Positions 6,113 through 45,844 are shown, counted from the stretch's first letter. The stretch is 64,000 nucleotides of DNA from an uncultured Gemmatimonadota bacterium (GCA_951812955.1 OX638340.1:1088001-1152000), one strand, 5' to 3'. The notes: generated by a model from the sequence alone, not told the origin. Made by a program: numbers and translations.

Positions 6113-7414
6113 CTAACCCTGCAACTGGTCGAAAGTGATTCTTGGATCGACTACTTTGAGCAGTATGTCCGCCACCAGGATGCCCAGGAGCGAAAGCAGG
6201 GAGCCGATGGTGAAAATCGCCATGACCATGGGATAGTCCCTGTTCAGCACCGACTCGAATCCGAGCAGTCCCATACCGGGTATGGTGAATATCGTTTCGA
6301 TGAACACGGACCCCGCGATCAAGGCCGGTAGCAACCCGGCGGACGTGGTCACGATCGGTATCAGGGAATTGCGGTACACGTGGCGCAGGATGACGACTTT
6401 TTCCGAAAGTCCCTTTGCCCGGGCGGTCCGCACGTAGTCCTGACGCAGGTTCTCCAGCATGCTTGTCCGCATGAATCGCGAAATCGTCGCGAAACTGATA
6501 TAGGCAGAGGCCAGCACGGGCAGAAACATGTGGTACATGTGATCCGTGAGGATTCGCCAGGTACTCCAGTCGCCGGAGGCTTCGAGCGACTGTATGCCCG
6601 ATGCCGGAAACCAGTAGAAGAACTCCCGGTTGCATAGGAATATGATCAGCAGCATGCCCACCCAGAAAGAGGGCATGGACCAGAGGACGAAAGTACCGGT
6701 CGTCAGTGCCCTGTCCGTGAGGGTATTTTGCTTGACCGCGAGCCAGACACCGAGGGGCAGGCCGACCAGGTAAGCGATGATGATGGCAATGATGTTGATC
6801 TCGAGGGTGACGGGCAGCCGCTCCATGATCCGGCCGATGACGGGCTGGTTGTCCTTGAAGGAACGGCCGAAATCCAGCGTGACGAAACGGTATCCAGCGA
6901 GTTTTGCGAGTTCGATACCCGCGCCCCTGTAGGTGTAGTTGCCCTCGGCGCTGAAGGTCCTACCTTCCCAGAAAGAAGATTGCTCCAACTCGCTTGACTC
7001 CGCTGGCGCCAAATCCCGCACAAGAACAAGGAACCGTTCTTTCTGGTCCGCTCTGTCCAGTCCAGCCAGCGCCCGGCGTTCCGACGCCTCGAGCCGTTCC
7101 AGCAACCCGTCCGCCCGCATTGCGCTTCGGTCGAAGGCGCTGATGGATTCGACTTTCAGGAAAAGCGAAGTGACCCAGTTGAAGTACTGTACGTGGACAG
7201 GCTGGTCCAGGCCCAGTTGCCTGCGCAGTTCCTGCCGTGTCTTCTCGATATCCTGCTGGCGGTCGGAAGCGAGTCCCTCGCCGCCGGCCACGCCGCCGAG
7301 GAACAGGTCCACGGGATCGCCAGGGGCGAGGTGCATAATGAAGAAGGATATCACCGTGATCCCGACTAGCGTGGGGACCATGAGCAGTGAGCGTTGAAGG
7401 ATGTAACCGAGCAT
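6113..7414 (-). CDS. ABC transporter permease (OppB/DppB-like) with enlarged periplasmic loop
   Basis: N-terminal ILQRSLLMVPTLVGITVISF and C-terminal permease core; 433 aa is about 120 aa longer than typical due to an inserted hydrophilic loop. Confidence 0.8.
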   Translation of the reverse strand: MLGYILQRSLLMVPTLVGITVISFFIMHLAPGDPVDLFLGGVAGGEGLASDRQQDIEKTRQELRRQLGLDQPVHVQYFNWVTSLFLKVESISAFDRSAMRADGLLERLEASERRALAGLDRADQKERFLVLVRDLAPAESSELEQSSFWEGRTFSAEGNYTYRGAGIELAKLAGYRFVTLDFGRSFKDNQPVIGRIMERLPVTLEINIIAIIIAYLVGLPLGVWLAVKQNTLTDRALTTGTFVLWSMPSFWVGMLLIIFLCNREFFYWFPASGIQSLEASGDWSTWRILTDHMYHMFLPVLASAYISFATISRFMRTSMLENLRQDYVRTARAKGLSEKVVILRHVYRNSLIPIVTTSAGLLPALIAGSVFIETIFTIPGMGLLGFESVLNRDYPMVMAIFTIGSLLSLLGILVADILLKVVDPRITFDQLQG

Positions 7415-7490
7415 AGGTGCCTATGATCCTGGTCTGGATCATGGTCGGTTGCGCGTCATCACGGGTGCGGACAGGTGCTGGAACGTGCGA

Positions 7491-9350
7491 TTACTGATAC
7501 ATCCGGTCGGTGGGCTCTACCCACCATTCCTGGTTCACGGCGCCGGCCGGATACCAGTTTACGCCATGAAAGCGCCGGCTGTACGCACTGACGACGCGCG
7601 ATTTCCATAGAAAGGTATAGGGTTGTTCCTCGTGGAGGATCTCCTGGAAACGCCGATATAATTCAATCCGCCGGTCCATGTCGAAATCCGTCCGGTAGAC
7701 TTCGAGGATCCCATCGGATTCCTCGTTCCTGAAACTGACGAAGTTCGATCCATTCCCTTCGATCTGCGACGAATGCCAGATCTGGTAGGCATCCGGCGGG
7801 AAACGCAGACCCGTTCCGCCGCTCCAACCGAGCGTCACGGCAGCGAAATCCTTGTCCTTCACCCTTTCAAGGAATATGGACCAGTCCAATTCGCGGACCT
7901 GGCAATCGATGCCGAGGTCTTCCAGGGCGCTCTGAAGCGTCAGCGCGATGTCCTTCCTGAGCTGGTTTCCCGAATTGACGAGGAACTCGAAACGGAAGGG
8001 AATCCTTTCGCCGTCGATCTCCTTGTCGAGAATCCCGTCTTTGTCCGAATCCGACCATCCTGCCTCGTTCAGGAGAGACAGGGCCAGGTCCGGGTCGAAA
8101 GCGTAGGCTTGCAGGTCGTGATTGTATTCGGGCCGGAACTTGTGAATAGGACTTTCGACCGGCTCCGCGAGTCCAAAAAGCAGGTTGCGCACCATGGATT
8201 CGCGATCTGTAAGATGGGTCATCGCCTGTCTGACCCGCCGGTCCCGGAATATGGGATGGTCGTTGTTCCACCCGATATACGTGTAGCCGCCCGCGTACTG
8301 AATGCCCTTCATGAATCGGTCTGTGAAGCCGGGGGACCAGCTCTTCTCCTTGAACTCGAGGGGCTTCATCCCGTGGAGATCGAGGTTGCCGTTGGTCAGT
8401 TCGATGAAGGCGGCGTCCTGGTTGTTTATAATCTTGAAGACTACCTTGTCCACGTTTCCGGCGGGGGGGAGCCCGTCCACTTCCCGGCCCCAGTAGTTCT
8501 CGTTACGACTGAGTACCACCCGCTGTCCGGTGAGCACGTCATTCTCCCAGTCCGCCACGCCGTAGGGCCCCGAACCAAGCATGCGCCGGTTGAAGTCCTG
8601 GTTGAACCGTTCGCCGAATTGCCGTACCCGGTCCGCGTGTTCACCCGCTTCCCAGCTTCCGTCGATGAGGGTCCCGATCGGCACCGGATCCAGCAGGCCG
8701 TCCGGATCATAGAAGTGACGCGGAAGGATATCGAAGCTGCCGAGGAAGAGATCGTTCAGGATGTAGGGTTCCCTGCATTCGAAACTGATCTCGTAATCGC
8801 CCAGCTTCCTGACGTTGACGATCGACGCATAATAGTTACGGAGGTGAGGCGCCCGCACGGTCGGGGTCAGGATGGTCTTGATGCTGAAGAGCACGTCATC
8901 CGCCGTCAGGTGAACGCCGTCCGCAAAATGGACGTTCTCGCGCAGACGGAAGGTATAGGTGAGCTTGTCTTCCGATACGGTCGGATAGTCGACCGCGATA
9001 TATCCACGCTGGGTGTAGGGCGGATCGTAGTCCGGCTCCAGCAGGGATTCGAAGACGTAGGTGTGAACCTGCGTGGCGCCCTGGTCGCTCGACGTGTAAG
9101 GATTGAAGTTTTCGGGATCGGACAGTGCGTGGCGTACCATCCAGTCGCCGAACTCCGGTTCGTCCGTCCCTGCGTATTTCAGCTCCGCCTTCTCCGTTCC
9201 GTCCAGCACGACGATATCCCTCGATTCAGACAGGATCGCCTGAACCTTGTTCCAGGGATCTTCCGTCGTTTCGCCGCCGCCGCAGGCGAACTGCATGGCG
9301 AATAAACAAACCGCAACGGCCTTTGCCGCTGTACCCATAATCTTACGCAT
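7491..9350 (-). CDS. ABC transporter substrate-binding protein, family 5 (peptide/opine/nickel type), lipoprotein
   Basis: family-5 SBP architecture; start chosen at MRKIMG (ATG 9350) because GGAGG lies 9 nt upstream; signal peptide with lipobox-like FACGGG. Confidence 0.8.
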   Translation of the reverse strand: MRKIMGTAAKAVAVCLFAMQFACGGGETTEDPWNKVQAILSESRDIVVLDGTEKAELKYAGTDEPEFGDWMVRHALSDPENFNPYTSSDQGATQVHTYVFESLLEPDYDPPYTQRGYIAVDYPTVSEDKLTYTFRLRENVHFADGVHLTADDVLFSIKTILTPTVRAPHLRNYYASIVNVRKLGDYEISFECREPYILNDLFLGSFDILPRHFYDPDGLLDPVPIGTLIDGSWEAGEHADRVRQFGERFNQDFNRRMLGSGPYGVADWENDVLTGQRVVLSRNENYWGREVDGLPPAGNVDKVVFKIINNQDAAFIELTNGNLDLHGMKPLEFKEKSWSPGFTDRFMKGIQYAGGYTYIGWNNDHPIFRDRRVRQAMTHLTDRESMVRNLLFGLAEPVESPIHKFRPEYNHDLQAYAFDPDLALSLLNEAGWSDSDKDGILDKEIDGERIPFRFEFLVNSGNQLRKDIALTLQSALEDLGIDCQVRELDWSIFLERVKDKDFAAVTLGWSGGTGLRFPPDAYQIWHSSQIEGNGSNFVSFRNEESDGILEVYRTDFDMDRRIELYRRFQEILHEEQPYTFLWKSRVVSAYSRRFHGVNWYPAGAVNQEWWVEPTDRMYQ

Positions 9351-22727: not shown

Positions 22728-23558
22728 ATGTCAACCGTCGAAGATCTCGTCAAGCGGATCAGGATCGAGGGGTGGTGCGTTGTGGACGGCGTAATACCTC
22801 CTGACGAAGTGGTAAAGGTCCGCGACAGTTTGATCGCCACGGCGGACGGACGGCCCGATGACCTGGCGAATGGCCGCCACTGCGTTCGAGGAATCATCGC
22901 ATACGACCAGGCGATCGCCCCCTACCTGTCCGACGACCGGATCATGGGCATCAACGAAGCGTTTTTCGGCAAGCACGTGCGCATTTCCATGACGACGGGC
23001 GTAATACTCCACCCCGGTTATCCCCGGACAGACGACCCAGGCGGAGGCCTTCACTCCGACTGGCCCTTCGGACAGGGCTACGACTATCGCATCCCGGCGC
23101 CGTATCCGGACTCCCCGCTGCTGCTGACCAGCCTATGGATGCTCACGCCCTTCACCAGGGAGAACGGCGGTACCGTACTGGTGCCTGGAAGCCACAAGGC
23201 GGGCAACAATCCGACGGGAGACAGCAGCCTGGTGCCGGGAACGACCCATCCATCGGAAATCCAGGCCGTAGGCGAACCGGGAAGCGTGTTGCTCTTCGAC
23301 AGCCGGACCTGGCATATAAACGGACACAACAACAGCGAAGAGACCCGCATGGCCATCATCGCCCGTTACGCGGCGTGGTGGTTCAACCTCAACCCGCTTA
23401 TTCCCGGTCTATCGGACTTCGAACGCGATGCGGCCGACCGGGGCTTCAGGCCTGATGATGTCGTGCCGCTGACTCCGGAGCAGTATGACGCGCTGCCTGA
23501 ACGCACCAGGCCCCTGTTCCACCACATCGTCCTGGGACAGAGAGTCCTTCCGTCCTAG
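22728..23558 (+). CDS. phytanoyl-CoA dioxygenase (PhyH) family Fe(II)/2OG oxygenase
   Basis: HSDWP...H..G iron-binding pattern, 276 aa. Confidence 0.7.
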   Translation: MSTVEDLVKRIRIEGWCVVDGVIPPDEVVKVRDSLIATADGRPDDLANGRHCVRGIIAYDQAIAPYLSDDRIMGINEAFFGKHVRISMTTGVILHPGYPRTDDPGGGLHSDWPFGQGYDYRIPAPYPDSPLLLTSLWMLTPFTRENGGTVLVPGSHKAGNNPTGDSSLVPGTTHPSEIQAVGEPGSVLLFDSRTWHINGHNNSEETRMAIIARYAAWWFNLNPLIPGLSDFERDAADRGFRPDDVVPLTPEQYDALPERTRPLFHHIVLGQRVLPS

Positions 23559-26338: not shown

Positions 26339-27478
26339 GTGAGCAATTCTGCTAAAGAAGCAAGCGGATCGGGTGATTCCCACGAAATCGTAGGTCCGGA
26401 CCACACCGCGTTGTCCGACGAGGAAGTACTGACCGAGGGGCCCGAGTACAACGCACCGCTCCCGAAGAACCGGGTAAAGTGGTACCGCTGCCGCGTGACC
26501 CGGGAGCAGCTGGCCAGTCTCAACAAACGAAGCGATTTCCTCGGATTCGTCCAGACCCTGGGCTATCTCGCCGTCCTCGCCGCGGGGGCGGGTGTCGCCA
26601 TCTACTCTTCTTTGAACTGGCCGTGGTACATCACCCTCCTGCTGGTGTTCATCAACGGACACTTCTGGCATTTCCTGGTCAACGGCTTCCATGAACTGGT
26701 CCATGATTCCGTCTTCCGGACGCGGTGGCTAAACCGCTTCTTCCTTCGCGTCTATTCTTTCCTGGGCTGGCACAACCACCATCACTTCTGGGCGAGCCAC
26801 ACCGAGCACCACAAGTACACGCTTCACCATCCCGACGACCAGGAAGTGATCCTGCCCCAGAAGTTCGACATGCGGAACATGTGGAAATGGTCGATCATCA
26901 ACTACCGGTATCCCTACGACCTGGTTAAAGGCAAGCTCGCGGCCTTCGCCGGGAAAATCCCGGACGACCGCTGGTCCCGGGAACTCTTTCCCGAAAGCGA
27001 TCCGGAGCGGCGCAGGGCCTTTACCAATTGGGAACGTTTCATGTTCACGGGTCACGTTCTTGTTGCGGGCGGAGCGCTGGTCTCGGGCCTGTGGGTGGTC
27101 CCGCTGGTCATCACCTTTCCGCGGATGTTCGGTGCGTGGTTGCAGTTCCTTTGCAACGCCACGCAGCACGTTGGGCTGCAGGACGAAGTGCCCGATTACC
27201 GCCTTTGCTGCAGGACGTTCTATATCAACCCCATCCTGCAGTTCCTGTACTGGCACATGAACTACCATACCGAGCACCACATGTACGCCGCGGTGCCCTG
27301 CTACAGGCTTGGACGCCTGCACAGACTCATCAAGCACGAGATGCCTCTCTGCACCCGTGGACTCTACGCGACCTGGAAACAGATTATCGAGATCATGGAC
27401 CGCCAGGAAGTCGAACCCGATTACCAGTTCGTCGTCGAACTTCCGACGGCCTCTCCCACACCCCGGGAATCTACGTGA
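26339..27478 (+). CDS. membrane fatty acid desaturase/hydroxylase family protein (three His boxes); start uncertain (GTG 26339 proposed)
   Basis: HELVHD, HNHHHFWASHTEHHKYTLHH, HTEHHMY histidine boxes; no in-frame ATG until far inside, AGGA 7 nt before GTG 26339. Confidence 0.7.
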   Translation: MSNSAKEASGSGDSHEIVGPDHTALSDEEVLTEGPEYNAPLPKNRVKWYRCRVTREQLASLNKRSDFLGFVQTLGYLAVLAAGAGVAIYSSLNWPWYITLLLVFINGHFWHFLVNGFHELVHDSVFRTRWLNRFFLRVYSFLGWHNHHHFWASHTEHHKYTLHHPDDQEVILPQKFDMRNMWKWSIINYRYPYDLVKGKLAAFAGKIPDDRWSRELFPESDPERRRAFTNWERFMFTGHVLVAGGALVSGLWVVPLVITFPRMFGAWLQFLCNATQHVGLQDEVPDYRLCCRTFYINPILQFLYWHMNYHTEHHMYAAVPCYRLGRLHRLIKHEMPLCTRGLYATWKQIIEIMDRQEVEPDYQFVVELPTASPTPREST

Positions 27479-28602
27479 AAATCACCGGCATAATACTGTT
27501 TGTGCTGGAAGATCCGGACCAGCCGCAGTACTACCATGTGTTGAAGCAGGTCCCGGGCCTGAGGCGCACGCAGTATACCCATGGCAGCGAATCCCATCCC
27601 AAAGGCGGAAACCTGCGTCAGCACTTCATCCGGGTCGAGACCGACGAAGGTATATCCGGTGTGTGCACGACCACGATGGGCCGTGAGCAGGTGGAGATCC
27701 TGAAGACACAGGTACTGGGCAAGAATCCCCTGCACCGGGAAGCGCTGTTCCAGTTGCTCCACAAGGGAACGCGCTGGCTGTACCAGAAACCAGGGTGGTT
27801 CGGTGACTTCGACAACTGTCTCTGGGACATCGCCGGCAAGAAGGCCGGCCTGCCGGTCTACGACCTGATCGGCCGGGTACGCGACCGGTTCCCGGTTTAC
27901 CTGACCGGGGGAGATTCCGACATCGAGACCTACCTGCGGATGATTCAGCAAGGCAAGGAATACGGGGTCAACGCCTACAAGTTTCACACCTACAAGGGCG
28001 GAAAGGCGGATATCCCGATATTCAGGGAAGTCCGCCGGATCGTCGGACCCGATTATCTGCTGTTAAACGACCCGGTCTGTTCGTATACGCTGAAGGAAGC
28101 GATCGAGGTGGGCAGGGTCTTGGAGGAATTGGATTTCATCTGGCTGGAAGAACCGATGCACGAACACAAAGAGCACCAGTATCAGGAACTGTGTAGGGAA
28201 TTGACCATACCGGTGATGGGGAACGAAACGCTGATGGGCGACCTGGGGATTTCCACGCAGCGGCTGATTTCGGGGGCGACCGACCTGTTGCGCGCCAATG
28301 CCCGTTTCGGGACCACCCAGGTGCTCAAGATGGCCCATTTTGCGGAGATGTACGACACGAATATCGAGCTGAACGCCGAAGGGGGACTCTTCGGAATCGT
28401 CCACGCACATCTCGGATGTTGCATCGACAACACAGGGTTCTACGAGACCGGCGCCAATGGCTTCGTAGACACGGCCAGCATCTGGGGCATGGTTAACAAA
28501 CCGCTCATCGCGGACGGCCACATCGTCCCGCCCGACGGGCCGGGCTGGGGCGCCGAGTGGGACATGGATCGCTTCGAAGCCATGACCGTGGCCGCGTACT
28601 GA
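27475..28602 (+). CDS. enolase-superfamily (mandelate racemase/muconate lactonizing enzyme family) protein
   Basis: DFIWLEEP metal-ligand motif; GTG start overlaps desaturase TGA stop (GTGA). Confidence 0.75.
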   Translation: MKITGIILFVLEDPDQPQYYHVLKQVPGLRRTQYTHGSESHPKGGNLRQHFIRVETDEGISGVCTTTMGREQVEILKTQVLGKNPLHREALFQLLHKGTRWLYQKPGWFGDFDNCLWDIAGKKAGLPVYDLIGRVRDRFPVYLTGGDSDIETYLRMIQQGKEYGVNAYKFHTYKGGKADIPIFREVRRIVGPDYLLLNDPVCSYTLKEAIEVGRVLEELDFIWLEEPMHEHKEHQYQELCRELTIPVMGNETLMGDLGISTQRLISGATDLLRANARFGTTQVLKMAHFAEMYDTNIELNAEGGLFGIVHAHLGCCIDNTGFYETGANGFVDTASIWGMVNKPLIADGHIVPPDGPGWGAEWDMDRFEAMTVAAY

Positions 28603-31884: not shown

Positions 31885-33015
31885 TCACTGCCACAAAATA
31901 TCCCCATCATCCATCTGCGAAGCAAGAAACTCCTCGTTCAATTCAACGCCCAGACCCGGTGCTTCCGTCATCACCACGTGTCCGTCCTGGATCACCGACT
32001 CGTCCGTCGCTAGCACGTCTTTCCATGTAGGATCGTCGAAACGGTGGTATTCCAGTGCCAGGAAGTTCGGGACACTCGCGCAGACGTGGGCGTCCCCGAC
32101 CGTGCTCAACGCGCTGGAGTTGTTGTGCGGAGCGAATGGCACGTAATACATCTCGGCCATGTTGGCGATCTTTCGGCATTCCGACAGGCCGCCGCATTTC
32201 GAGATGTCCGGCATGATGATATCGGCGGCCTGCTGCTGCAGCAGGTCGCGGAAGCCATGGCGAAGATAGAGGTTTTCGCCGACGCAGATGGGCGTCCCCG
32301 TGGCCTGCGTGATCTTGGCCAGGGCGTCGATGTTCTCGGGGGGAACCGGCTCTTCAAGCCACAGGAGATTCAGCGGTTCGAGTTCCTGGGCCATTTTCAT
32401 CCCCGCGCTGGCGTCATACCTGCCATGCAAGTCGATGGCAAGATCAAGAGACGGTCCGATGCCCTCGCGGATCGCATACGCTTCATCCACCAGGGACTTG
32501 AGTTCATCGGGCGTCACCGACCAGTTCCACGGATCCAGCTTGTGTGGGTTATCCGCGTCGTCCAGATCGAACTTGATCGCCGTGAAACCCTGTTCCCGCA
32601 CCTCCGCGGCACGTTCGTTGTAGTCGGCGTGGGCACTGTCCACGTATAGACGAACCCGGTCACGGAACTTGCCGCCCAGAAGCCGGTAGACGGGGACGCC
32701 CTGGGCCTTCCCCGCCAGGTCCCACAGGGCAACCTCGATGCCTGTGAGCGCGGAGATCGAAGCGCCGCCCGCACCGCCCATGAAGATGTACCTTCGACGG
32801 ATGTACTCGAAACAGGCATCCACGTCCCTCGGGTCCATGCCGATAATCATCTTCGCCATGTGCCGGGTCGACTCCCGCCAGCCGCCGTCGACGTGACTGG
32901 CTTCCCCCGTGCCGTATACCCCCTCGTCCGTGTATACGCGAACGTAATGGTACCGGTAGGTGGTATTCCCTGATTTAACCGGGACGTCAGCAGTTTTTAT
33001 TTCGGTGATCTTCAT
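31885..33015 (-). CDS. enolase-superfamily dehydratase (D-galactonate dehydratase-like)
   Basis: MKITEIKTADVPV... LLWLEEP, 376 aa. Confidence 0.8.
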   Translation of the reverse strand: MKITEIKTADVPVKSGNTTYRYHYVRVYTDEGVYGTGEASHVDGGWRESTRHMAKMIIGMDPRDVDACFEYIRRRYIFMGGAGGASISALTGIEVALWDLAGKAQGVPVYRLLGGKFRDRVRLYVDSAHADYNERAAEVREQGFTAIKFDLDDADNPHKLDPWNWSVTPDELKSLVDEAYAIREGIGPSLDLAIDLHGRYDASAGMKMAQELEPLNLLWLEEPVPPENIDALAKITQATGTPICVGENLYLRHGFRDLLQQQAADIIMPDISKCGGLSECRKIANMAEMYYVPFAPHNNSSALSTVGDAHVCASVPNFLALEYHRFDDPTWKDVLATDESVIQDGHVVMTEAPGLGVELNEEFLASQMDDGDILWQ

Positions 33016-36978: not shown

Positions 36979-38481
36979 TCAGTATAATATAGTGATGTTT
37001 TTGTCAGTTGAGACTGTACCGGAACTTTTTTTTCCTTTCCGATCCTTACCCACACGGCTCACTACCACCCCCACGATCACGTTCAGCGCCAGGCCCAGCA
37101 CGCCGGCGTGCCATCCCCAGACCTTGCCCAGGCCCGCGAGGGTCAACCCTCCTGCCAGCAACGTGCCCGCGGCCATGCCGACGGCCGCGCCCGTCGCATT
37201 GAATCGCGGCCAGAGCACCCCCAGCACGAACAGCGGCGCCGTCTGGATCAGCACCTCCATTTTGAGCTCTATGAGTCCCCAGAGCGTGAGATCCGGGGAC
37301 AGAGCGATGAGCACCAGGATGGCCATGATCGCCCAGGATATGCGCTTGCCCCACGCGGTAAGACGTTCCTCCGGTAACGACCCTATCCGGAACCTGCCCA
37401 GCACATCCTTGACGAGCAGGGAGGAGAGGCTGAGCAGGACTGAATCGGCCGTCGACATGATGGCCGCGACGATGCCGGTGAGGACGAGCACGGTCATGAC
37501 GTACAGCCAGATGGATTCCGCCGCCCATACCCGGAGCAGGCGGGGCATGACCTGGTCGGTGTCTATGCCTTGCAGGCCCGCCAACTGCGGGATGGCCAGG
37601 ATCCCCACGAGCACGACCGCCGAGATGGTGACCAGGGGCATGAAGGCCATGAAGGTAAACGACCGTTTCAGGCTGCGGGTGCTCCGCGCCGCGAAGATTC
37701 GCTGAATGGCCTGGGGATATACGGCGGCGGCGAAACCCACCAGCAGGACCGTGCTGATCCATGTGCGGATCGTGTCTCCCTCCGGGAGCGCGGCTTTCTC
37801 AGGCTGGTTGGCGATGATCCATGCCGTCGCTTCCCCCAGGCGATCGCTGCCCGGCACCACGGCCGCCAGCATGCCGAGCAGACCCGCGAAGAGCAACAGT
37901 CCCTGGATGCAGTCGGTCCAGGCCACGGCCTGCATGCCGCCGATAGTCTCGTAGACCAGGATGATGACGCCCAGAACCACGACCCCAGCCCAGAACGGTA
38001 TGGTTCCGCCCGATAGACCTGAGACGATGTGCCCCACGGCGAGGAGCTGGGCGAGCAGGTAGTTGGAGATGGCGACCACGAAAAGGACGCCAGCGAAGAG
38101 TGTCAGTCCTTTCGATCCGAATCGATGGGTGATCCAGTCGCCCGGCGTCACGAAGTTCCACTGGCGGGAGGCGTTATAGAGCGGCGGCGCGAAGAGCAGA
38201 TAGGCCACCACGATGGCCATCATGAATCCGATGCTCATGATCCACGCGAAGCCCAGCCGGTAGGCCTCGCCAGGATAGCCGATGAGCGTATTGCCGCTGT
38301 ACTGCGTGGCGTAAAGTGTGAAGAAGAGGACCAGCGCGCCCAAGTTCTTGCCCGCCAGGTAGAAGGACGACATGGAGTTGTCCCGCCGACGGGACCGGGC
38401 CACGTATCCGAGGACAATCATGAAGACGAGGTACGCGACCAGGAACAGGAGTGCGCCGGGTCCGTAGGGCTGGTCCGCCAT
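36979..38481 (-). CDS. sodium:solute symporter (SSF) family transporter
   Basis: 500 aa, 13 TM-like segments, SSF N-terminal region YLAGKNLG... Confidence 0.8.
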   Translation of the reverse strand: MADQPYGPGALLFLVAYLVFMIVLGYVARSRRRDNSMSSFYLAGKNLGALVLFFTLYATQYSGNTLIGYPGEAYRLGFAWIMSIGFMMAIVVAYLLFAPPLYNASRQWNFVTPGDWITHRFGSKGLTLFAGVLFVVAISNYLLAQLLAVGHIVSGLSGGTIPFWAGVVVLGVIILVYETIGGMQAVAWTDCIQGLLLFAGLLGMLAAVVPGSDRLGEATAWIIANQPEKAALPEGDTIRTWISTVLLVGFAAAVYPQAIQRIFAARSTRSLKRSFTFMAFMPLVTISAVVLVGILAIPQLAGLQGIDTDQVMPRLLRVWAAESIWLYVMTVLVLTGIVAAIMSTADSVLLSLSSLLVKDVLGRFRIGSLPEERLTAWGKRISWAIMAILVLIALSPDLTLWGLIELKMEVLIQTAPLFVLGVLWPRFNATGAAVGMAAGTLLAGGLTLAGLGKVWGWHAGVLGLALNVIVGVVVSRVGKDRKGKKSSGTVSTDKNITILY

Positions 38482-38484
38482 GAG

Positions 38485-38703
38485 CTAACCGTCCTCCCGC
38501 CAGAATCTGTGGATCACGTAAGCCGTGAAGCACGCGATAGCCAGGCAGACGCCGAGGCAGATCACGACCCAGTACGGCAGGCCGAACCAAACCGGCATCG
38601 GGTCGATTTTCGGGATATACCATGGAATCGAGAGGGCGAACAGGACTGCGTACACTGCCCAGATCCATCGGGGAAACCGGAGGGCGGAATCGGGAGAAAC
38701 CAT
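38485..38703 (-). CDS. DUF3311-like small membrane subunit associated with sodium:solute symporters
   Basis: 72 aa two-TM protein immediately upstream of and 4 nt from SSF gene; start at MVSPDS chosen. Confidence 0.55.
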   Translation of the reverse strand: MVSPDSALRFPRWIWAVYAVLFALSIPWYIPKIDPMPVWFGLPYWVVICLGVCLAIACFTAYVIHRFWREDG

Positions 38704-38744
38704 AAATGTACTCAAAAAGTAGTACCCGGGAAAAACCGTATCCG

Positions 38745-39593
38745 CTACACGCGAACGTACTTGTGCACGAGGTTCTCCACGCCCACTTCGCCCACGTAGA
38801 TATCGCCGTAGCGGTCGACCCAGACGCTGTGGGCGCCATGGGCGCGATCGACGGGTCCGCCCCGGACGACCCACTGGGCGATGAGCCTTCCGTCCATGTT
38901 CATGATGGTGACCCCGCCGCCCTCGCCCAGGAAGACCGTATCCTCGTCATCCACGAACAGGCCGCAGGGCGCGGGACGCCCGGGCCATTCCGCGAGAAAG
39001 CTGCCCTCGGAGTCGAAGACCTGAATCCGGTTGTTGGTCTCCCGGTCGGCCACGAGAAGGCGTCCGTCGGACGCGGGAAAAATGTTATGGGGTAAGGTGA
39101 ACCGGCCGGGCGCGCTGCCTTGACCGCCCCAGGTGTGGACCAGGTCTCCCGAGGGCGTCATCCGGTGCACGTAGCACTGCCCGTATCCATCGGCGACGTA
39201 CAGGTCGCCGGACGGTCCTTTCACCACGCGCGTCGGCATATTGAACGGTTTGCCCGGTTCTCCGGTCTGGTTTGGCACGCCCAGTGTCTGCAGCAAGGTG
39301 CCGTCGGTTGAAAATACCCGGACGGTATGGTCTCTGCAGTCCGGAATGAAAATCCTGTCCTCCCCGTCGATCCAGATCTCGTGGGGCAGGGACAAAATGT
39401 CGTGACCCCATTCGTCCAACAGGCGGCCGTCCCGGTCGTAGACCACCACGGCGGGATTCGGCTCCCGGTCGACAACATAGACCCGGTCCCGTGAATCAAC
39501 GGCCACGGCCGTGGCGATACCCAGCGTCCGTTCGGAACCCCATCCGGGCACTTTCTCGTAACAGTAATCACCCGATCCCCAGATCATTGGCAT
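38745..39593 (-). CDS. NHL-repeat protein resembling peptidyl-alpha-hydroxyglycine alpha-amidating lyase (PAL) beta-propeller
   Basis: repeated D..G.IYV.D..N.RVQVF units, 282 aa. Confidence 0.6.
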   Translation of the reverse strand: MPMIWGSGDYCYEKVPGWGSERTLGIATAVAVDSRDRVYVVDREPNPAVVVYDRDGRLLDEWGHDILSLPHEIWIDGEDRIFIPDCRDHTVRVFSTDGTLLQTLGVPNQTGEPGKPFNMPTRVVKGPSGDLYVADGYGQCYVHRMTPSGDLVHTWGGQGSAPGRFTLPHNIFPASDGRLLVADRETNNRIQVFDSEGSFLAEWPGRPAPCGLFVDDEDTVFLGEGGGVTIMNMDGRLIAQWVVRGGPVDRAHGAHSVWVDRYGDIYVGEVGVENLVHKYVRV

Positions 39594-39853: not shown

Positions 39854-40636
39854 ATGGGTGTACTCGACAGCTTTGGTTTAAAAGGCCGCATCGCCGTGGT
39901 AACGGGCGGCGCGGGACCGCAGTTTGGCAGCAGCATCTCCGAGGCCCTGGCCGAAGCGGGCGCGACCGTGGTCGTCGCCTCCAGGAACATGGAGAACAAC
40001 CACCGGTTCGTTGCCGGATTGAACGAACGGGGATACGATGCGCATCCCGAAGAGCTCGACATCACGAACACCGAATCGATCGGCAGTCTGAAACAACGGG
40101 TAATGGACCGATTCGACCGCGTGGATATACTCGTCAACAGCGCGGTGGTCGGACGCGGCGGCGGGTTCGACGAACAGACCCCCGACTACTGGGCGGCAAG
40201 CGCTCAGGGAAACATGGTAGGCCTTTTCGCGCTGTGCAAGGCCTTCGTTCCGGTCATGGCCAAGCGGGGCGGCGGCAGTGTAATCAACGTTTCCAGTATC
40301 TACGGTGTCGTGGCCAACGACCCGGGCCTCTATGAAGAAACCGGGATGAAGCAGCCTCCCGACTACACCTTCGTCAAGGGCGGCATGATCAATTTCACCC
40401 GGTACATCGCAACCTACTTCGGGAAACAGGGCGTTCGGGCCAACTGCATCTGTCCGGGCGGTTACTTCAACGAACAGCCCGGTCCCTTTGTGCGCCGGTA
40501 CGAGCGCCGCGTTCCCCTCGGACGCATGCTGAACAACGAGGATCTCAAAGGTGCCGTAGTCTTCCTGGCCTCCGACGCATCCAGGTACGTCACCGGCGTC
40601 TCGTTGATGGTCGACGGCGGCTGGACGGCCCTCTAG
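39854..40636 (+). CDS. SDR-family oxidoreductase
   Basis: TGGAGPQFGSS Rossmann motif, SSIYG...Y..VKGG; AGGAG SD before ATG 39854. Confidence 0.8.
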   Translation: MGVLDSFGLKGRIAVVTGGAGPQFGSSISEALAEAGATVVVASRNMENNHRFVAGLNERGYDAHPEELDITNTESIGSLKQRVMDRFDRVDILVNSAVVGRGGGFDEQTPDYWAASAQGNMVGLFALCKAFVPVMAKRGGGSVINVSSIYGVVANDPGLYEETGMKQPPDYTFVKGGMINFTRYIATYFGKQGVRANCICPGGYFNEQPGPFVRRYERRVPLGRMLNNEDLKGAVVFLASDASRYVTGVSLMVDGGWTAL

Positions 40637-40786: not shown

Positions 40787-41491
40787 TCACGACTCCGGAT
40801 CGACGATCGATTTGTCCTGGGGATGATAGTCGATCGCTCGTCGGCCGTGGTCCAGGTCGTACATCCGCCCGGTACTGTCGGACACGCCGAATACGACCTC
40901 GAATCGAATGCCGGGGTGGATGACCGCCCGTTCGAACACCCGGACCGCGTCGCCGTGACTCAGGTGATGGGGATGTCCCGGCAGGTCCCGCTGTTTCTGG
41001 AAATTGCCTATGCGCACGCACACGACCTCCATGTCGGACCGCACCGCGTACATGTAACCCAGGCTTTCCCCGAAAACCTTGCTGATGGAATAGTAGCTTT
41101 CCGGCCTCGGAGTCATGTCGATCGTGCGGAAGACGTCCTGCGGATACGGCGCCAGGAGGCCCGCGCGGCTCGCGAAAGCAACCCGGCGCACACCGTTGCG
41201 GCTCGCCGCTTCGAAAAGCGTGTAGGTACCGATGAAGTTGGCATGCAGGATTTCGTCCCACGACGCGCCGCCCGATGGGTTGCCGGCCAGGTGGATCACT
41301 GCGTCCATGCCTTCCGTGGCCTGCATGACCGCGTCCATGTCGGTGATGTCGCCCACGACTTCGTCTTCCAGTCCCGTGGTCGGCACCCGGTCGAAACCGC
41401 GGAGGGGATATCTATCCTTAAGTCCGTTAACGATGATCGAGCCGATGACGCCGGCCGATCCGGTGACGAGTATACGAGGTGTTTCGTTCAT
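40787..41491 (-). CDS. NAD-dependent epimerase/dehydratase family protein (short, 234 aa)
   Basis: ILVTGSAGVIGS Rossmann motif, YSISK catalytic YxxxK. Confidence 0.7.
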   Translation of the reverse strand: MNETPRILVTGSAGVIGSIIVNGLKDRYPLRGFDRVPTTGLEDEVVGDITDMDAVMQATEGMDAVIHLAGNPSGGASWDEILHANFIGTYTLFEAASRNGVRRVAFASRAGLLAPYPQDVFRTIDMTPRPESYYSISKVFGESLGYMYAVRSDMEVVCVRIGNFQKQRDLPGHPHHLSHGDAVRVFERAVIHPGIRFEVVFGVSDSTGRMYDLDHGRRAIDYHPQDKSIVDPES

Positions 41492-42714
41492 TCCGACTCC
41501 TTGCGCATGAATGGTCCGTGCCGTTCAATCCAGTCGTAGGTCTCCTGCCACGGCGCGCTGCCGTCCTCTTCCCAGATCTCCAGCCTTACGCCGCGAATAT
41601 TGCCCTCGGGAAACCCGGTCAGGCGGCTGACCGAAGGATAGCCAATGGTATGGTATACGTTGCCGCTCGGTAGCATCAACTTTCCGATATGACGTGGAAT
41701 CTCGGTCTTCGGGTTCCCCGCGATACGCACCAGTTCCGCCTCGTCCACTTCCACACCCAGTCCGGGTCCTTCCGGCACCGGTGAGCTTCCGTCAGCCACC
41801 TCGATCCGGCCGCCGGTGACGTCCTCGCCGTACTGGTCGTCCAGGTTGACCGTGTGCATCACATTGGGGATCACCGCGCCGAGGTGGAGCGCCATGGCTT
41901 TGCTAAGCGTCCCCCCGGTCAGCTGGATCACGGTGGACACATTCGCCTCGGCACAGGCGAAGCCCCGTTTCAGACTCATGCCGATACCGTGCTCGCCGAC
42001 CATGTAGGCGTCGGCGCATCCGAGCGTGATCTCCGGTCCGCCGCCGAGTTGCGGTACGTGCATGAGCAGGGGGATCGTCGTCTTTTCCCGCAGGCGGCGC
42101 CATCCGTCCACGTCGCGCCAGACCAGGGGATCTTCGATCACGCCGACGACAGGAGACTTCTCCAGGTGTTCGACTATTCTCGCCACGTCGGCGCCCGACC
42201 GGTTGTGGTTGAAATCGTAGTGCATCTTGAATCCGGGAGGCGCGACCTCCTCCACCGCGCGGTTGTGCTCGTAGACATCGAAGAACGCGCATGTGTGCAT
42301 CTTGAACGCCATGTACCCCTCGTCCGCCGCGCGCACGACCTCGGCGGCCAGGTCTTCGGGAGATGTCGAGCGTGTCCACGCCGCGACCGGCACCCGGTCG
42401 CGAACCTTCTGACCCATGAGCTTGTAGGCCGGTATTTCGAGGTGTTTCCCCATGAGATCGTACAGGGCGCCCATGAGCGCTACCGGTAGTTTGGCGTTTA
42501 TGTGGTCGAAGGGATGGCTGCCGGTCAACCGGTCCACTTCCCTGATGTCCATCGTCACATGTCCCCGGCTTTCGCCGTAACCCACCACGCCGTTGTCCGC
42601 GGTCACCTTGAATACCGTCTGCGTATCGATTCCATTGAACAGGACCTTACGGCCCTCGTTGCGGTCGGCCAACCTGGGATTGATGTGTGTAATCGCGATA
42701 TCGGTGATTTTCAT
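41488..42714 (-). CDS. enolase-superfamily (MR/MLE) protein
   Basis: MKITDIAITHINP..., GVIEDP motif; start ATG 42714 (upstream part of caller's 580-aa ORF is non-coding extension); 4-nt overlap with downstream epimerase. Confidence 0.75.
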   Translation of the reverse strand: MKITDIAITHINPRLADRNEGRKVLFNGIDTQTVFKVTADNGVVGYGESRGHVTMDIREVDRLTGSHPFDHINAKLPVALMGALYDLMGKHLEIPAYKLMGQKVRDRVPVAAWTRSTSPEDLAAEVVRAADEGYMAFKMHTCAFFDVYEHNRAVEEVAPPGFKMHYDFNHNRSGADVARIVEHLEKSPVVGVIEDPLVWRDVDGWRRLREKTTIPLLMHVPQLGGGPEITLGCADAYMVGEHGIGMSLKRGFACAEANVSTVIQLTGGTLSKAMALHLGAVIPNVMHTVNLDDQYGEDVTGGRIEVADGSSPVPEGPGLGVEVDEAELVRIAGNPKTEIPRHIGKLMLPSGNVYHTIGYPSVSRLTGFPEGNIRGVRLEIWEEDGSAPWQETYDWIERHGPFMRKESE

Positions 42715-42752
42715 GGCCTGTCTCGTTTCCTTCCTGTTCTGCCGGGCATTTC

Positions 42753-43625
42753 CTATGAGTTCGCCAGCGACTTCGGCGTCCCCGCCTGATTCACCCCGTC
42801 CCGCACGGTGAGGGCGATCGGCCAGTTCTGCCCGCCCCGCTTTACGTACTCGTCCTCCGCACCGCATAGCCAGGTGAACATCTGTGCGGCGGCGAGCGCG
42901 CCCTGGAACTGTTCGAATACGCCGGCCGGGGGATTGAAGTCGATCGTATTGAAATCGATATCGTCCTGTTTTACCCAGTCCCGCACGGGCGGCGTGGTCC
43001 GCCAGTAGTTGTATTTGAGCAGGTTGCGATAGGCGCTCCTGCCCCGGGGGCCCGAGGTGGCTCGCGACCGGCGGTGCCAGATGCCGTAGACCGTAAGGAA
43101 GATCGTCCCCGCCGGGGCGGCCGTAGAAACCGTGCCGCGGATGGAACCCAGGTGGGCCATCATGGGCGCCTTGTTGCGCATGAAGTGCGAACCGGGCAGC
43201 ACGACGGTCGGCCCCATGTCCCCGGTGCATTCCTCCGGATAATAGAATACCTGAAGATACTCCAGCGCCGGGGTATAGATCGTACCGCCATCCCGGTGCC
43301 AGTTCTGCGGCTTGTCATATGGCAGCGGCCCCCGGTGATTGCTGATGATGAGCGGCAGCGTGAAATCGCGCCCCAGGAGCGACCGGACGGCGCCAGCCGC
43401 CTCCGGGTTCATGAGCACGCCGTCTACGAAGAACGACTCGCCCACGATTGGCGTGGGTTCGTAAGTGCTGTCACTGCGTTCCAGATAATCGACGACCTGT
43501 TCGTTGATCTCTTTAGGAACGACTTCCGGCAGCATCAGGAAGCCGTTGCGGCAGAAATCGACCACTTCGCGGTCCGTCATGGTCGCAGCGCAATCCATTT
43601 TCTTGCCGTAGGGCACCTTTGCCAT
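42753..43625 (-). CDS. phytanoyl-CoA dioxygenase (PhyH) family Fe(II)/2OG oxygenase
   Basis: HRDGG...H pattern; start at MAKVPYG (ATG 43625). Confidence 0.7.
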   Translation of the reverse strand: MAKVPYGKKMDCAATMTDREVVDFCRNGFLMLPEVVPKEINEQVVDYLERSDSTYEPTPIVGESFFVDGVLMNPEAAGAVRSLLGRDFTLPLIISNHRGPLPYDKPQNWHRDGGTIYTPALEYLQVFYYPEECTGDMGPTVVLPGSHFMRNKAPMMAHLGSIRGTVSTAAPAGTIFLTVYGIWHRRSRATSGPRGRSAYRNLLKYNYWRTTPPVRDWVKQDDIDFNTIDFNPPAGVFEQFQGALAAAQMFTWLCGAEDEYVKRGGQNWPIALTVRDGVNQAGTPKSLANS

Positions 43626-43627
43626 GC

Positions 43628-44095
43628 CTATCTCCACCTTTCCAGGACGAACTCGTATCCCAGGCCGTAGTTGTCCTGTTCGTTCATGGCCAGGGATGCC
43701 TCCGGAAACTTGATGATGCGCCATCCGTCGTCCAGCGCTTCCTTGATCGACCGGTACCTGAAATCGCCGTTTTCGTCGAGGCCGTCGGAGTCCGCTCCAT
43801 CTTCGTAGATGCTGATACCGACCACGGCCGAGTGGGGGTTGGTCGAGGGTGCGTGCAAGTAGAGCAGACTCTGTTTAGACCCGGTCGAAGACTCCTGCGG
43901 CTGCAGCTGCGGTTGCGTCTGCTTCTGTGCCTGCGGTTGCTTCTGCGCCTGCGCCTGCTTCTGTGCCTGCGGTTGCTCCCGCACCTTTAACTGCCCCTGT
44001 GCCTGAGCCAGGGCCCGGTCAATGTCCTTGATATCAAGTTTTCCGTTTTTGAAACGCTTCCTGATTCGTTTCAATATCGCGGTCATTTTATCCAT
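43628..44095 (-). CDS. hypothetical protein: basic N-terminal helix, Gln-rich (QAQKQ)n linker, ~90-aa unknown C-terminal domain
   Basis: ORF stop 2 nt before PhyH start codon; QPQAQKQAQAQKQPQAQKQTQPQLQPQ low-complexity tract. Confidence 0.5.
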   Translation of the reverse strand: MDKMTAILKRIRKRFKNGKLDIKDIDRALAQAQGQLKVREQPQAQKQAQAQKQPQAQKQTQPQLQPQESSTGSKQSLLYLHAPSTNPHSAVVGISIYEDGADSDGLDENGDFRYRSIKEALDDGWRIIKFPEASLAMNEQDNYGLGYEFVLERWR

Positions 44096-45478: not shown

Positions 45479-45844
45479 ATGTCATTCTACGAAGTGGAAA
45501 CCTGGGTTCCTAAGCCTGGCCGGAAGGTCGACCACGATGAAATGATCCGGACCTGGTTCGCCTTCGTCGAAGCCCACAAGGACGAACTGTTCCCCGAATG
45601 GCGGTCAGCCCGGTACTACCGCGAAGTGACGCGCGATACGGCCCGTGCCACCGGGCGATATGTCATGGTATTCGAGTACGTATCCCACGAAGGATTCCTC
45701 GCATACAAGGCGCGGCGCAAGGACTGGTCGGGACCCTATGCGGAATACAAGAAGGTGGATCCCTACCAGTTCTTCGACTTGGACACCGTCACCGAAACCT
45801 GCTGGATGCCCGAGGAACGGGACCGCTGGCTCGACTTCACCTGA
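45479..45844 (+). CDS. hypothetical small protein (121 aa)
   Basis: clean ORF immediately 5' of arginase-family gene; no recognised motif. Confidence 0.45.
   Translation: MSFYEVETWVPKPGRKVDHDEMIRTWFAFVEAHKDELFPEWRSARYYREVTRDTARATGRYVMVFEYVSHEGFLAYKARRKDWSGPYAEYKKVDPYQFFDLDTVTETCWMPEERDRWLDFT

Follow-up and report, generated by a model that had tools for sequence, protein, structure and literature searches.

A PhyH-type dioxygenase encoded in a 64,000-nucleotide (nt) stretch of DNA from an uncultured Gemmatimonadota bacterium (GCA_951812955.1 OX638340.1:1088001-1152000) has a dedicated and previously undescribed partner domain, and the pairing of the two is robust. We call this stretch, at its full length, the window, and count positions from its first letter. 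The dioxygenase, here named PhyH-B, is encoded at 42753-43625 (minus strand, 290 amino acids (aa)), and its partner domain is carried by a small protein of 155 aa encoded directly ahead of it (43628-44095, minus strand; start ATG at 44095, stop codon at 43628-43630). The two probably function as a unit. They head a run of four minus-strand genes, and the best explanation of the whole, in which our confidence is evenly balanced, is an auxiliary-subunit cassette set within a catabolic island for a sugar-acid-like compound.

The evidence for the pairing comes from its distribution. In a species scan using one genome per species, the small gene was present in at least 144 genomes, and 80 loci were fetched, two of which end at a contig edge and are uninformative. 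By tblastn and hidden Markov model search, PhyH-B adjoins the small gene in 77 of the 78 informative loci, lying directly downstream of it in 73 and directly upstream in four (L062, L074, L076 and L086), with gaps between small gene and PhyH-B mostly in the range -19 to +15 nt. The PhyH-B orthologues at the fetched loci are 43-98% identical to that of the window. The neighbourhoods of six diverse homologues of the small protein always contained a gene with a weak PhyH match, ~292-300 aa in length and placed 3-7 nt past the small gene. Approaching the pair from the other side gives the same picture: for both P0220 and P0193, homologues picked from the PhyH-B search alone, the gene directly upstream encodes a small-family protein of 124 aa. 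At L008 (Chthonomonadaceae) and L012 the pair stands by itself, with no other shared neighbours.

The cassette formed by these two genes is carried by Latescibacterota, Gemmatimonadota, Zixibacteria, Chthonomonadaceae, Planctomycetota, Lentisphaeria, Candidatus Moanabacter, Spirochaetia, Dehalococcoidia and Poribacteria (about nine phyla). In none of the 80 fetched records is a cultured species named. Several relatives come from bins whose names suggest sponge metagenomes (e.g. APA_bin, IRC1_bin), and bins from soil, groundwater and the open ocean carry the cassette as well.

The two proteins have, moreover, diverged together. The distance matrices of the small protein and PhyH-B are correlated with r = 0.93 across 78 pairs, a value matched by 0 of 2000 permutations, and their divergence rates are alike (mean distance 0.46 for the small domain and 0.43 for PhyH-B). 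Three genomes carry two cassettes, and in each of them the subtype to which a small gene belongs is matched by that of its own PhyH-B. The correlation shows co-inheritance rather than contact, because shared phylogeny alone can produce a correlation of this kind.

The small open reading frame (ORF) is a real gene. We found 110 homologues of its product at E <= 1e-3 in a collection of 5.8 billion proteins, all of them hypothetical proteins wherever the source gives any name, and the family profile matched 225 clusters among 1.84 billion cluster representatives, nearly all of 80-140 aa. Across the C-terminal 84 codons, comparison with close relatives gives a ratio of nonsynonymous to synonymous substitution rates (dN/dS) of 0.05-0.08. 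The initial annotation had named, as the outcome that would tell against its own account, a Gln-rich ORF that is not conserved beside PhyH and lacks a coding signature; the near-universal adjacency and the low dN/dS establish the ORF as both coding and conserved there, and that objection therefore falls away. The protein has no match in Pfam, NCBIfam or PADLOC, its exact sequence is absent from the contig index, and literature searches found the small partner described nowhere. A defence system or mobile element was considered and dropped, there being no PADLOC matches and a metabolic context.

The anatomy first read from the sequence, namely a helix, a Gln-rich linker and an unrecognised C-terminal domain, is borne out by an AlphaFold model, by a tandem repeat finder and by the empty family libraries. 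The model has a mean predicted local distance difference test score (pLDDT) of 74.6. Its N-terminal helical hairpin (residues 1-39; 43979-44095, minus strand), also seen in the alignments, consists of helices at residues 3-16 and 22-39. In the family alignments the hairpin spans ~35 residues and is moderately conserved, with F15, L20 and D24 kept in at least 90% of 100 sequences and G18 in more than 90% of a 22-sequence alignment. A disordered Gln-rich linker follows (residues 40-71; 43883-43978, minus strand; pLDDT below 50 at residues 40-70), coded mostly by an imperfect 18/36-nt tandem repeat at 43894-43977 (minus strand). The length of this repeat evidently changes freely in both directions. 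Near relatives, 79-89% identical overall, have whole proteins of 129-151 aa against 155 aa in the window, and elsewhere the linker amounts to a few to ~10 residues in most clades, being largely absent outside the window's clade. Since the Gln-rich linker is coded by a tandem repeat, we regard it as a lineage-specific expansion and not a family feature. The basic helix and (QAQKQ)n linker to which the initial annotation drew attention are present in the window and are peculiar to its clade.

What is conserved across the family is the C-terminal domain (residues 72-155; 43631-43882, minus strand), which includes the motifs QSLLYL, GISIYE, DGWRIIKFP and YGLGYEFVLERWR and has, over ~85 aa, 18 invariant columns among 100 sequences. 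The hairpin is missing from some family members of 83-96 aa and from a natural fusion protein, P0257, described below; the C-terminal domain is therefore the core module, with hairpin and tether as accessories. In the model, residues 75-155 make up a compact domain built of four strands together with short helices; its block-mean pLDDT lies mostly between 81 and 95 and drops to 67 in one block of 10 residues. A Foldseek search of the PDB with this model gave a best E of 1.4, and a PDB profile search with the small protein a best E of 0.52, neither of them significant. Within the domain, an acidic loop (E98-G100-D102-G105-D107-G110) resembles calcium- or metal-binding loops. FG-GAP/VCBS repeat proteins (P0242, P0254, P0277 and others) gave many weak stretches of similarity to profile positions 37-106, which cover two strands and this acidic G/D-rich loop; the matches could reflect a calcium-loop-like motif in the small domain or compositional bias. 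These long proteins were rejected as family members, the similarity consisting of many weak stretches within repeats.

PhyH-B itself appears to be a divergent and apparently competent member of the PhyH family of Fe(II)/2-oxoglutarate (2OG) dioxygenases. Its Pfam PhyH match (PF05721) scores 25.4 bits against a cut-off of 22 and is confined to residues 99-184 (for all four proteins of the run, Pfam scores in bits were compared with the family gathering cut-offs). A search for homologues returned 788 at E <= 1e-3. In an alignment of 116 sequences, the 2-His-1-carboxylate iron triad (H110-x-D112 and H184) shows no variation. Nor does R200, which, along with R185 and R186 (each kept in more than 90%), is a candidate for the basic residue downstream of the distal His that binds the C5 carboxylate of 2OG. 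The AlphaFold model of PhyH-B (pLDDT 95.3) has the PhyH-type double-stranded beta-helix fold, and membership of the family is thus supported by fold, triad and Pfam score. Identity to solved PhyH members is 12-23%, the best sequence-level match in the PDB being KanJ at E 0.37. The closest structural relatives include AndA, EasH, HygX, KanJ and EctD, which are small-molecule enzymes, and TlxI (7vbq_B) is among the top neighbours. A family-specific C-terminal extension of ~80 aa (about residues 210-290) completes the protein, and R209, D216, W217, W252, W268 and P269 are the invariant residues of this region in the same alignment.

Along the four-gene run the junctions measure 2 nt, 38 nt and a 4-nt overlap in which the start of the fourth gene lies over the stop of the third, and the ORF coordinates thus confirm the minus-strand layout and tight coupling originally described. 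The final codons of the small gene contain a Shine-Dalgarno-like GGTGGAG (43632-43638, minus strand; read from the sequence) 6 nt ahead of the PhyH-B ATG, which is the layout expected for translational coupling. Co-transcription of the run would be consistent with these junctions. The initial annotation treated the run as a single four-gene operon. However, the small gene and PhyH-B are its only constant part, as the loci where the pair stands alone illustrate, and the four genes are two modules rather than one fixed operon: the small gene with PhyH-B, and gene 3 with gene 4.

Additional information comes from proteins and genes found around the cassette in other genomes. The fusion protein P0257 (353 aa) occurs on at least 24 contigs, which stem from several samples. 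It has a canonical PhyH domain at residues 13-209 (Pfam 45 bits) and, at residues 267-351, a region 42% identical to the C-terminal domain of the window's small protein. Its gene overlaps that of a 277-aa PhyH-B orthologue by 4 nt (L095:6001-7892), which hints that in some versions of the system two different PhyH enzymes are bridged by the small domain. At L010 and L014 the small gene is immediately preceded by a PhyH paralogue that is encoded as a separate gene. We surveyed the flanks by counting Pfam families on 207 genes from 54 non-redundant loci, with the 25 commonest families listed per batch. Among the matches listed, extra PhyH paralogues are the sole family clearly enriched outside the window's clade (14 of 105 genes in the first batch), and smaller, lineage-bound groups comprise creatininase, short-chain dehydrogenase/reductase (SDR), sulfatase and ABC transporter families. 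A constant third partner was sought, and none other than the extra PhyH paralogues emerged among the matches listed for the 207 flanking genes. At one Latescibacterota locus (L054:6259-8086) the small gene is followed by a tandem of PhyH-B-like genes, whose products are 45% and 43% identical to the PhyH-B of the window. Six Spirochaetia loci (L058, L070, L071, L072, L078 and L094) have a convergent gene of ~280 aa directly after the cassette (~7120-7990, minus strand), with none in the window; these six genes probably correspond to six creatininase-family matches.

We infer from these observations co-transcription, a physical complex, a subunit role for the small protein and a class of substrate. 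The small protein would be made together with PhyH-B, at a fixed ratio, by means of the ribosome-binding-like motif in its own last codons. Of its three parts, the helical hairpin is optional and the flexible tether is under no constraint of length, while the conserved ~85-aa domain would bind PhyH-B, perhaps at the enzyme's C-terminal extension. The small protein would be an auxiliary subunit without catalysis of its own that either stabilises PhyH-B or completes its substrate pocket. In this genome, PhyH-B would then add an oxidative step to the work of an island that breaks down an imported solute, polar and similar to a sugar acid. Taken more broadly, and with confidence that falls a little short of even, the small protein would represent a domain family of a new kind, perhaps new in its fold as well, acting as the obligate and non-homologous auxiliary subunit of one clade of PhyH-type enzymes, a bacterial heteromeric architecture spread over about nine phyla and without a described counterpart. 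As a variant of this broader proposal, the domain itself could be hydroxylated, in which case the pair would be a stand-alone protein-modification system.

Several points weigh against an auxiliary subunit acting in a sugar-acid pathway. The case for a complex rests on genomic evidence, and tight coupling with co-inheritance would be expected just as much of an enzyme with its substrate, or of an assembly factor. The fusion partner in P0257 is another PhyH paralogue and not PhyH-B, so that the fusion shows an affinity for PhyH-type enzymes generally and not this exact pairing. The single informative exception to the adjacency, in Poribacteria (L057:1671-2051), has an aldo/keto reductase after the small gene and no PhyH-B; it may be a decayed cassette or may reveal a second kind of partner. 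A consensus scan of the run found no promoter-like sites, and terminator-like sites merely at chance level, so that no transcript is defined. Only in a few lineages does the cassette have constant metabolic neighbours, and the link to sugar-acid catabolism may therefore be clade-local or accidental.

An alternative is that the small protein is the substrate of its neighbour. PhyH-B would hydroxylate a residue of the C-terminal domain, and the modified protein would have a role of its own. A gene order with substrate before enzyme, and a pair able to stand alone, suit a self-contained modification system of this kind, and the residues invariant in the domain among 100 sequences (P87, D123, W125 and R126, with P131 in more than 90%) are typical targets of hydroxylation. 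The creatininase family, one of whose members is the peptide-processing enzyme MftE, is probably represented convergent to the cassette at several Spirochaetia loci. However, many enzymes that act on small molecules are among the nearest structural neighbours of PhyH-B, several lineages have small-molecule catabolic genes as neighbours, the fusion of a substrate to a paralogous enzyme (P0257) would be an odd arrangement, and the conserved part of the protein is a folded domain and not a leader with a variable core. We therefore consider a substrate role unlikely.

The small protein might instead assist PhyH-B transiently, as a factor for folding, iron loading or assembly, or might be an allosteric regulator, in either case without being a stable subunit. 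Coupled expression and co-divergence fit such a helper equally well, and the acidic E98-G110 loop, with its resemblance to calcium- or metal-binding loops and the weak, repeated FG-GAP matches to that part of the profile, would not be out of place in one. Against this, no Cys or His is conserved in the small protein (100-sequence alignment) that could handle iron, the P0257 fusion implies permanent proximity, and the domain is, over its whole length, as well conserved as the enzyme, which points to an extensive and fixed interface. We assign a transient helper a low probability.

The suggestion made in the initial annotation, that the first gene encodes a transcriptional regulator or a substrate carrier, is improbable. 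The first helix in the window is indeed basic (K9, R10, R12, K13, R14 and K16), and ligand binding by a globular domain on a tether is conceivable. The alignment, however, shows that the basic charge is not kept across the family and is specific to the window's clade, which argues against a DNA-binding regulator; additionally, two helices make no known DNA-binding motif, and the hairpin is dispensable, as the short members and the fusion demonstrate. A carrier fares no better, as no carrier-protein family or fold was detected: the protein has no Pfam family, including those of the phosphopantetheine-attachment type, and its predicted fold is mixed alpha/beta.

Finally, the N-terminal amphipathic helices and linker might be an encapsulation peptide targeting the domain, and the dioxygenase bound to it, to a microcompartment or encapsulin. 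Encapsulation peptides generally have the layout of a helix, an unconserved linker and a cargo domain, which the small protein matches. Microcompartments have been proposed for Poribacteria (PMC3909097), but no shell-protein or encapsulin family is among the matches listed for the 207 neighbouring genes, the lineages are very diverse and many members lack the hairpin, leaving this the most improbable of the readings considered. An auxiliary subunit of PhyH-B thus remains our preferred account of the small protein.

The second module of the run begins with gene 3 (41488-42714, minus strand, 408 aa), which encodes an atypical enolase-superfamily protein of the acid-sugar-dehydratase-like kind. 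Its C-terminal barrel domain (residues 122-326) matches MR_MLE_C (PF13378) with 78 bits, and there is no match to the capping domain MR_MLE_N (PF02746) at E <= 0.01, a domain that the two other enolase genes of the window do have. The best PDB matches are 3hpf and 2oqy (E 2e-16), with galactonate dehydratase among the better ones; both entries were deposited under the name muconate cycloisomerase, and presumably represent the Oceanobacillus galactarate dehydratase. The NCBIfam matches are all to acid-sugar dehydratase or cycloisomerase models and lie far below the equivalog cut-offs. Alignment with the paralogues shows that the metal ligands D167 and E194 are kept. At the third metal-ligand site, where the paralogues have E, gene 3 and its orthologues read LLMH after a 3-residue deletion, an alignment-dependent assignment for which comparison with 3hpf gives the same register. 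The orthologue group, which includes L005:9309-10535 and L010:10042-11265, shares the two kept ligands, a conserved extra C-terminal segment of ~80 aa and the lack of a capping-domain match, and may have a different metal site or chemistry.

Gene 4 (40787-41491, minus strand, 234 aa) was originally called an epimerase, and it does score 82 bits against the Pfam family Epimerase. Its matches to solved uronate dehydrogenases, which align over residues 5-229 (6mfh, E 2.9e-34; 3ay3, E 5.8e-31; 3rft, E 7.4e-25), identify it instead as a homologue of these enzymes. It carries GSAGVIG near the N-terminus (the NAD-binding GxxGxxG) and YSISK (the catalytic YxxxK), and its best NCBIfam match is to an Azf-like glucose-6-phosphate dehydrogenase model at 156 bits, below the cut-off. 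We therefore class gene 4 as a short extended SDR of the uronate-dehydrogenase type and not an epimerase, with glucuronate and galacturonate as candidate substrates.

Beyond gene 4 lie further genes with a plausible place in the island. A classical SDR similar to gluconate-5-dehydrogenase or KduD is encoded convergently at 39854-40636 (plus strand; Pfam adh_short_C2, 156 bits, and NCBIfam); it is syntenic in L005 and L015-L036 and is present in L038. An NHL-repeat beta-propeller protein (38745-39593, minus strand; Pfam NHL and a weak SGL match), which as a guess could be a lactonase, and a sodium:solute symporter (36979-38481, minus strand; Pfam SSF, 149 bits), a candidate importer, are both syntenic in the window's clade. 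A further ORF (38485-38874, minus strand) contains hydrophobic stretches, has no Pfam match and ends 4 nt before the start of the symporter gene; it may encode a small membrane subunit of the transporter, and L005 has a 72-aa gene at the same place.

Genes 3 and 4 together with the KduD-like SDR, the propeller and the symporter are syntenic only in the window's clade (L005 and L015-L035), and at L036 the enolase gene is absent. In L038 the order is cassette, HpcH/HpaI aldolase, PhyH, WelO5-like oxygenase, uronate-dehydrogenase-like gene and then the convergent SDR, while in L010 it is PhyH, cassette, HpcH aldolase, the gene 3 enolase orthologue (70% identical) and PhyH. This company of dehydrogenase, dehydratase and aldolase suggests that in these lineages the genes serve the breakdown of a polar solute of hydroxy-acid or sugar-acid-like character. 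The sugar-acid type of substrate put forward in the initial annotation fits these neighbouring genes.

The same annotation saw a recurring pairing of PhyH with enolase-superfamily (MR/MLE) genes. The two families do co-occur, both in the window and in unrelated genomes such as L010, L014 and L038, but the loci in the window, a canonical PhyH gene at 22728-23558 and MR/MLE genes at ~27475-28602 and 31885-33015, are several kb apart and do not form adjacent pairs. Between 22728 and 33015 there are also genes for a sulfatase, an alpha/beta hydrolase, a member of the fatty-acid desaturase family, a GFO/IDH/MocA oxidoreductase and an NHL/teneurin-like propeller of 706 aa. Catabolic paralogues are thus densely packed here, as is expected for sponge-associated bacteria. 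On the plus strand at 45479-45844, a 121-aa ORF without a Pfam match is syntenic with arginase-family and CoA-transferase III genes, and L005 has an unannotated 121-aa gene at the same place (6318-6683).

In sponge symbionts and other uncultured bacteria, few gene families are as expanded and as little understood as those with PhyH domains (PMC3909097). If the partner is needed, the enzyme expressed alone may show poor or no activity, and co-expression would be the practical route to an assay. If the proposed architecture is true, the heteromeric 2OG oxygenases, of which very few are known, would gain a bacterial example whose partner is non-homologous, and it would give a function to a conserved family annotated so far as hypothetical. 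The annotation of the window itself is corrected in two respects, in that the run consists of two modules and its last gene is of the uronate-dehydrogenase type.

Among known systems, the nearest likeness is with the fungal TlxI/TlxJ (and TlxA/TlxC) oxygenases. TlxI is a catalytically incompetent auxiliary with the PhyH fold that is required for efficient catalysis by the oxygenase TlxJ, and TalA is a natural fusion (PMC12141560). Both systems combine a PhyH-fold oxygenase with a non-catalytic partner from the same cluster, and both include a natural fusion, the partner role being in our case inferred from the genes. The fungal partner, however, is a degenerate PhyH paralogue, whereas the bacterial one is an unrelated ~85-aa domain without a known fold; the small protein has neither a PhyH match in Pfam nor a fold match in the PDB that would make it a degenerate paralogue. 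From the PhyH family at large (PF05721; human PAHX, AndA, EasH, HygX, KanJ and EctD), PhyH-B differs by its C-terminal extension and its near-constant small-gene neighbour.

Genes 3 and 4, overlapping by 4 nt, resemble the oxidative uronate pathway, in which uronate dehydrogenase works with galactarate dehydratase or galactarolactone cycloisomerase. Gene 4, however, is ~30-40 aa shorter than the solved enzymes, and gene 3 lacks the third metal carboxylate, has the extra ~80-aa C-terminal segment and falls below the NCBIfam cut-offs. The real substrate may therefore differ. The small protein is unlike an acyl or peptidyl carrier protein, which is a four-helix bundle with a phosphopantetheine Ser motif, in that its model is mixed alpha/beta with four strands and it belongs to no Pfam family. 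It is also unlike the precursor of a ribosomally synthesised and post-translationally modified peptide, with its leader and variable core, since conservation is highest in its C-terminal 85 aa, for which folding is predicted. In the excerpted text of Kamke et al. (PMC3909097), PhyH genes are abundant and diverse in Poribacteria, with their function unexplained, and the small partner gene goes unmentioned there; the small-protein family occurs in Poribacteria too, alongside the PhyH expansions that this text reports.

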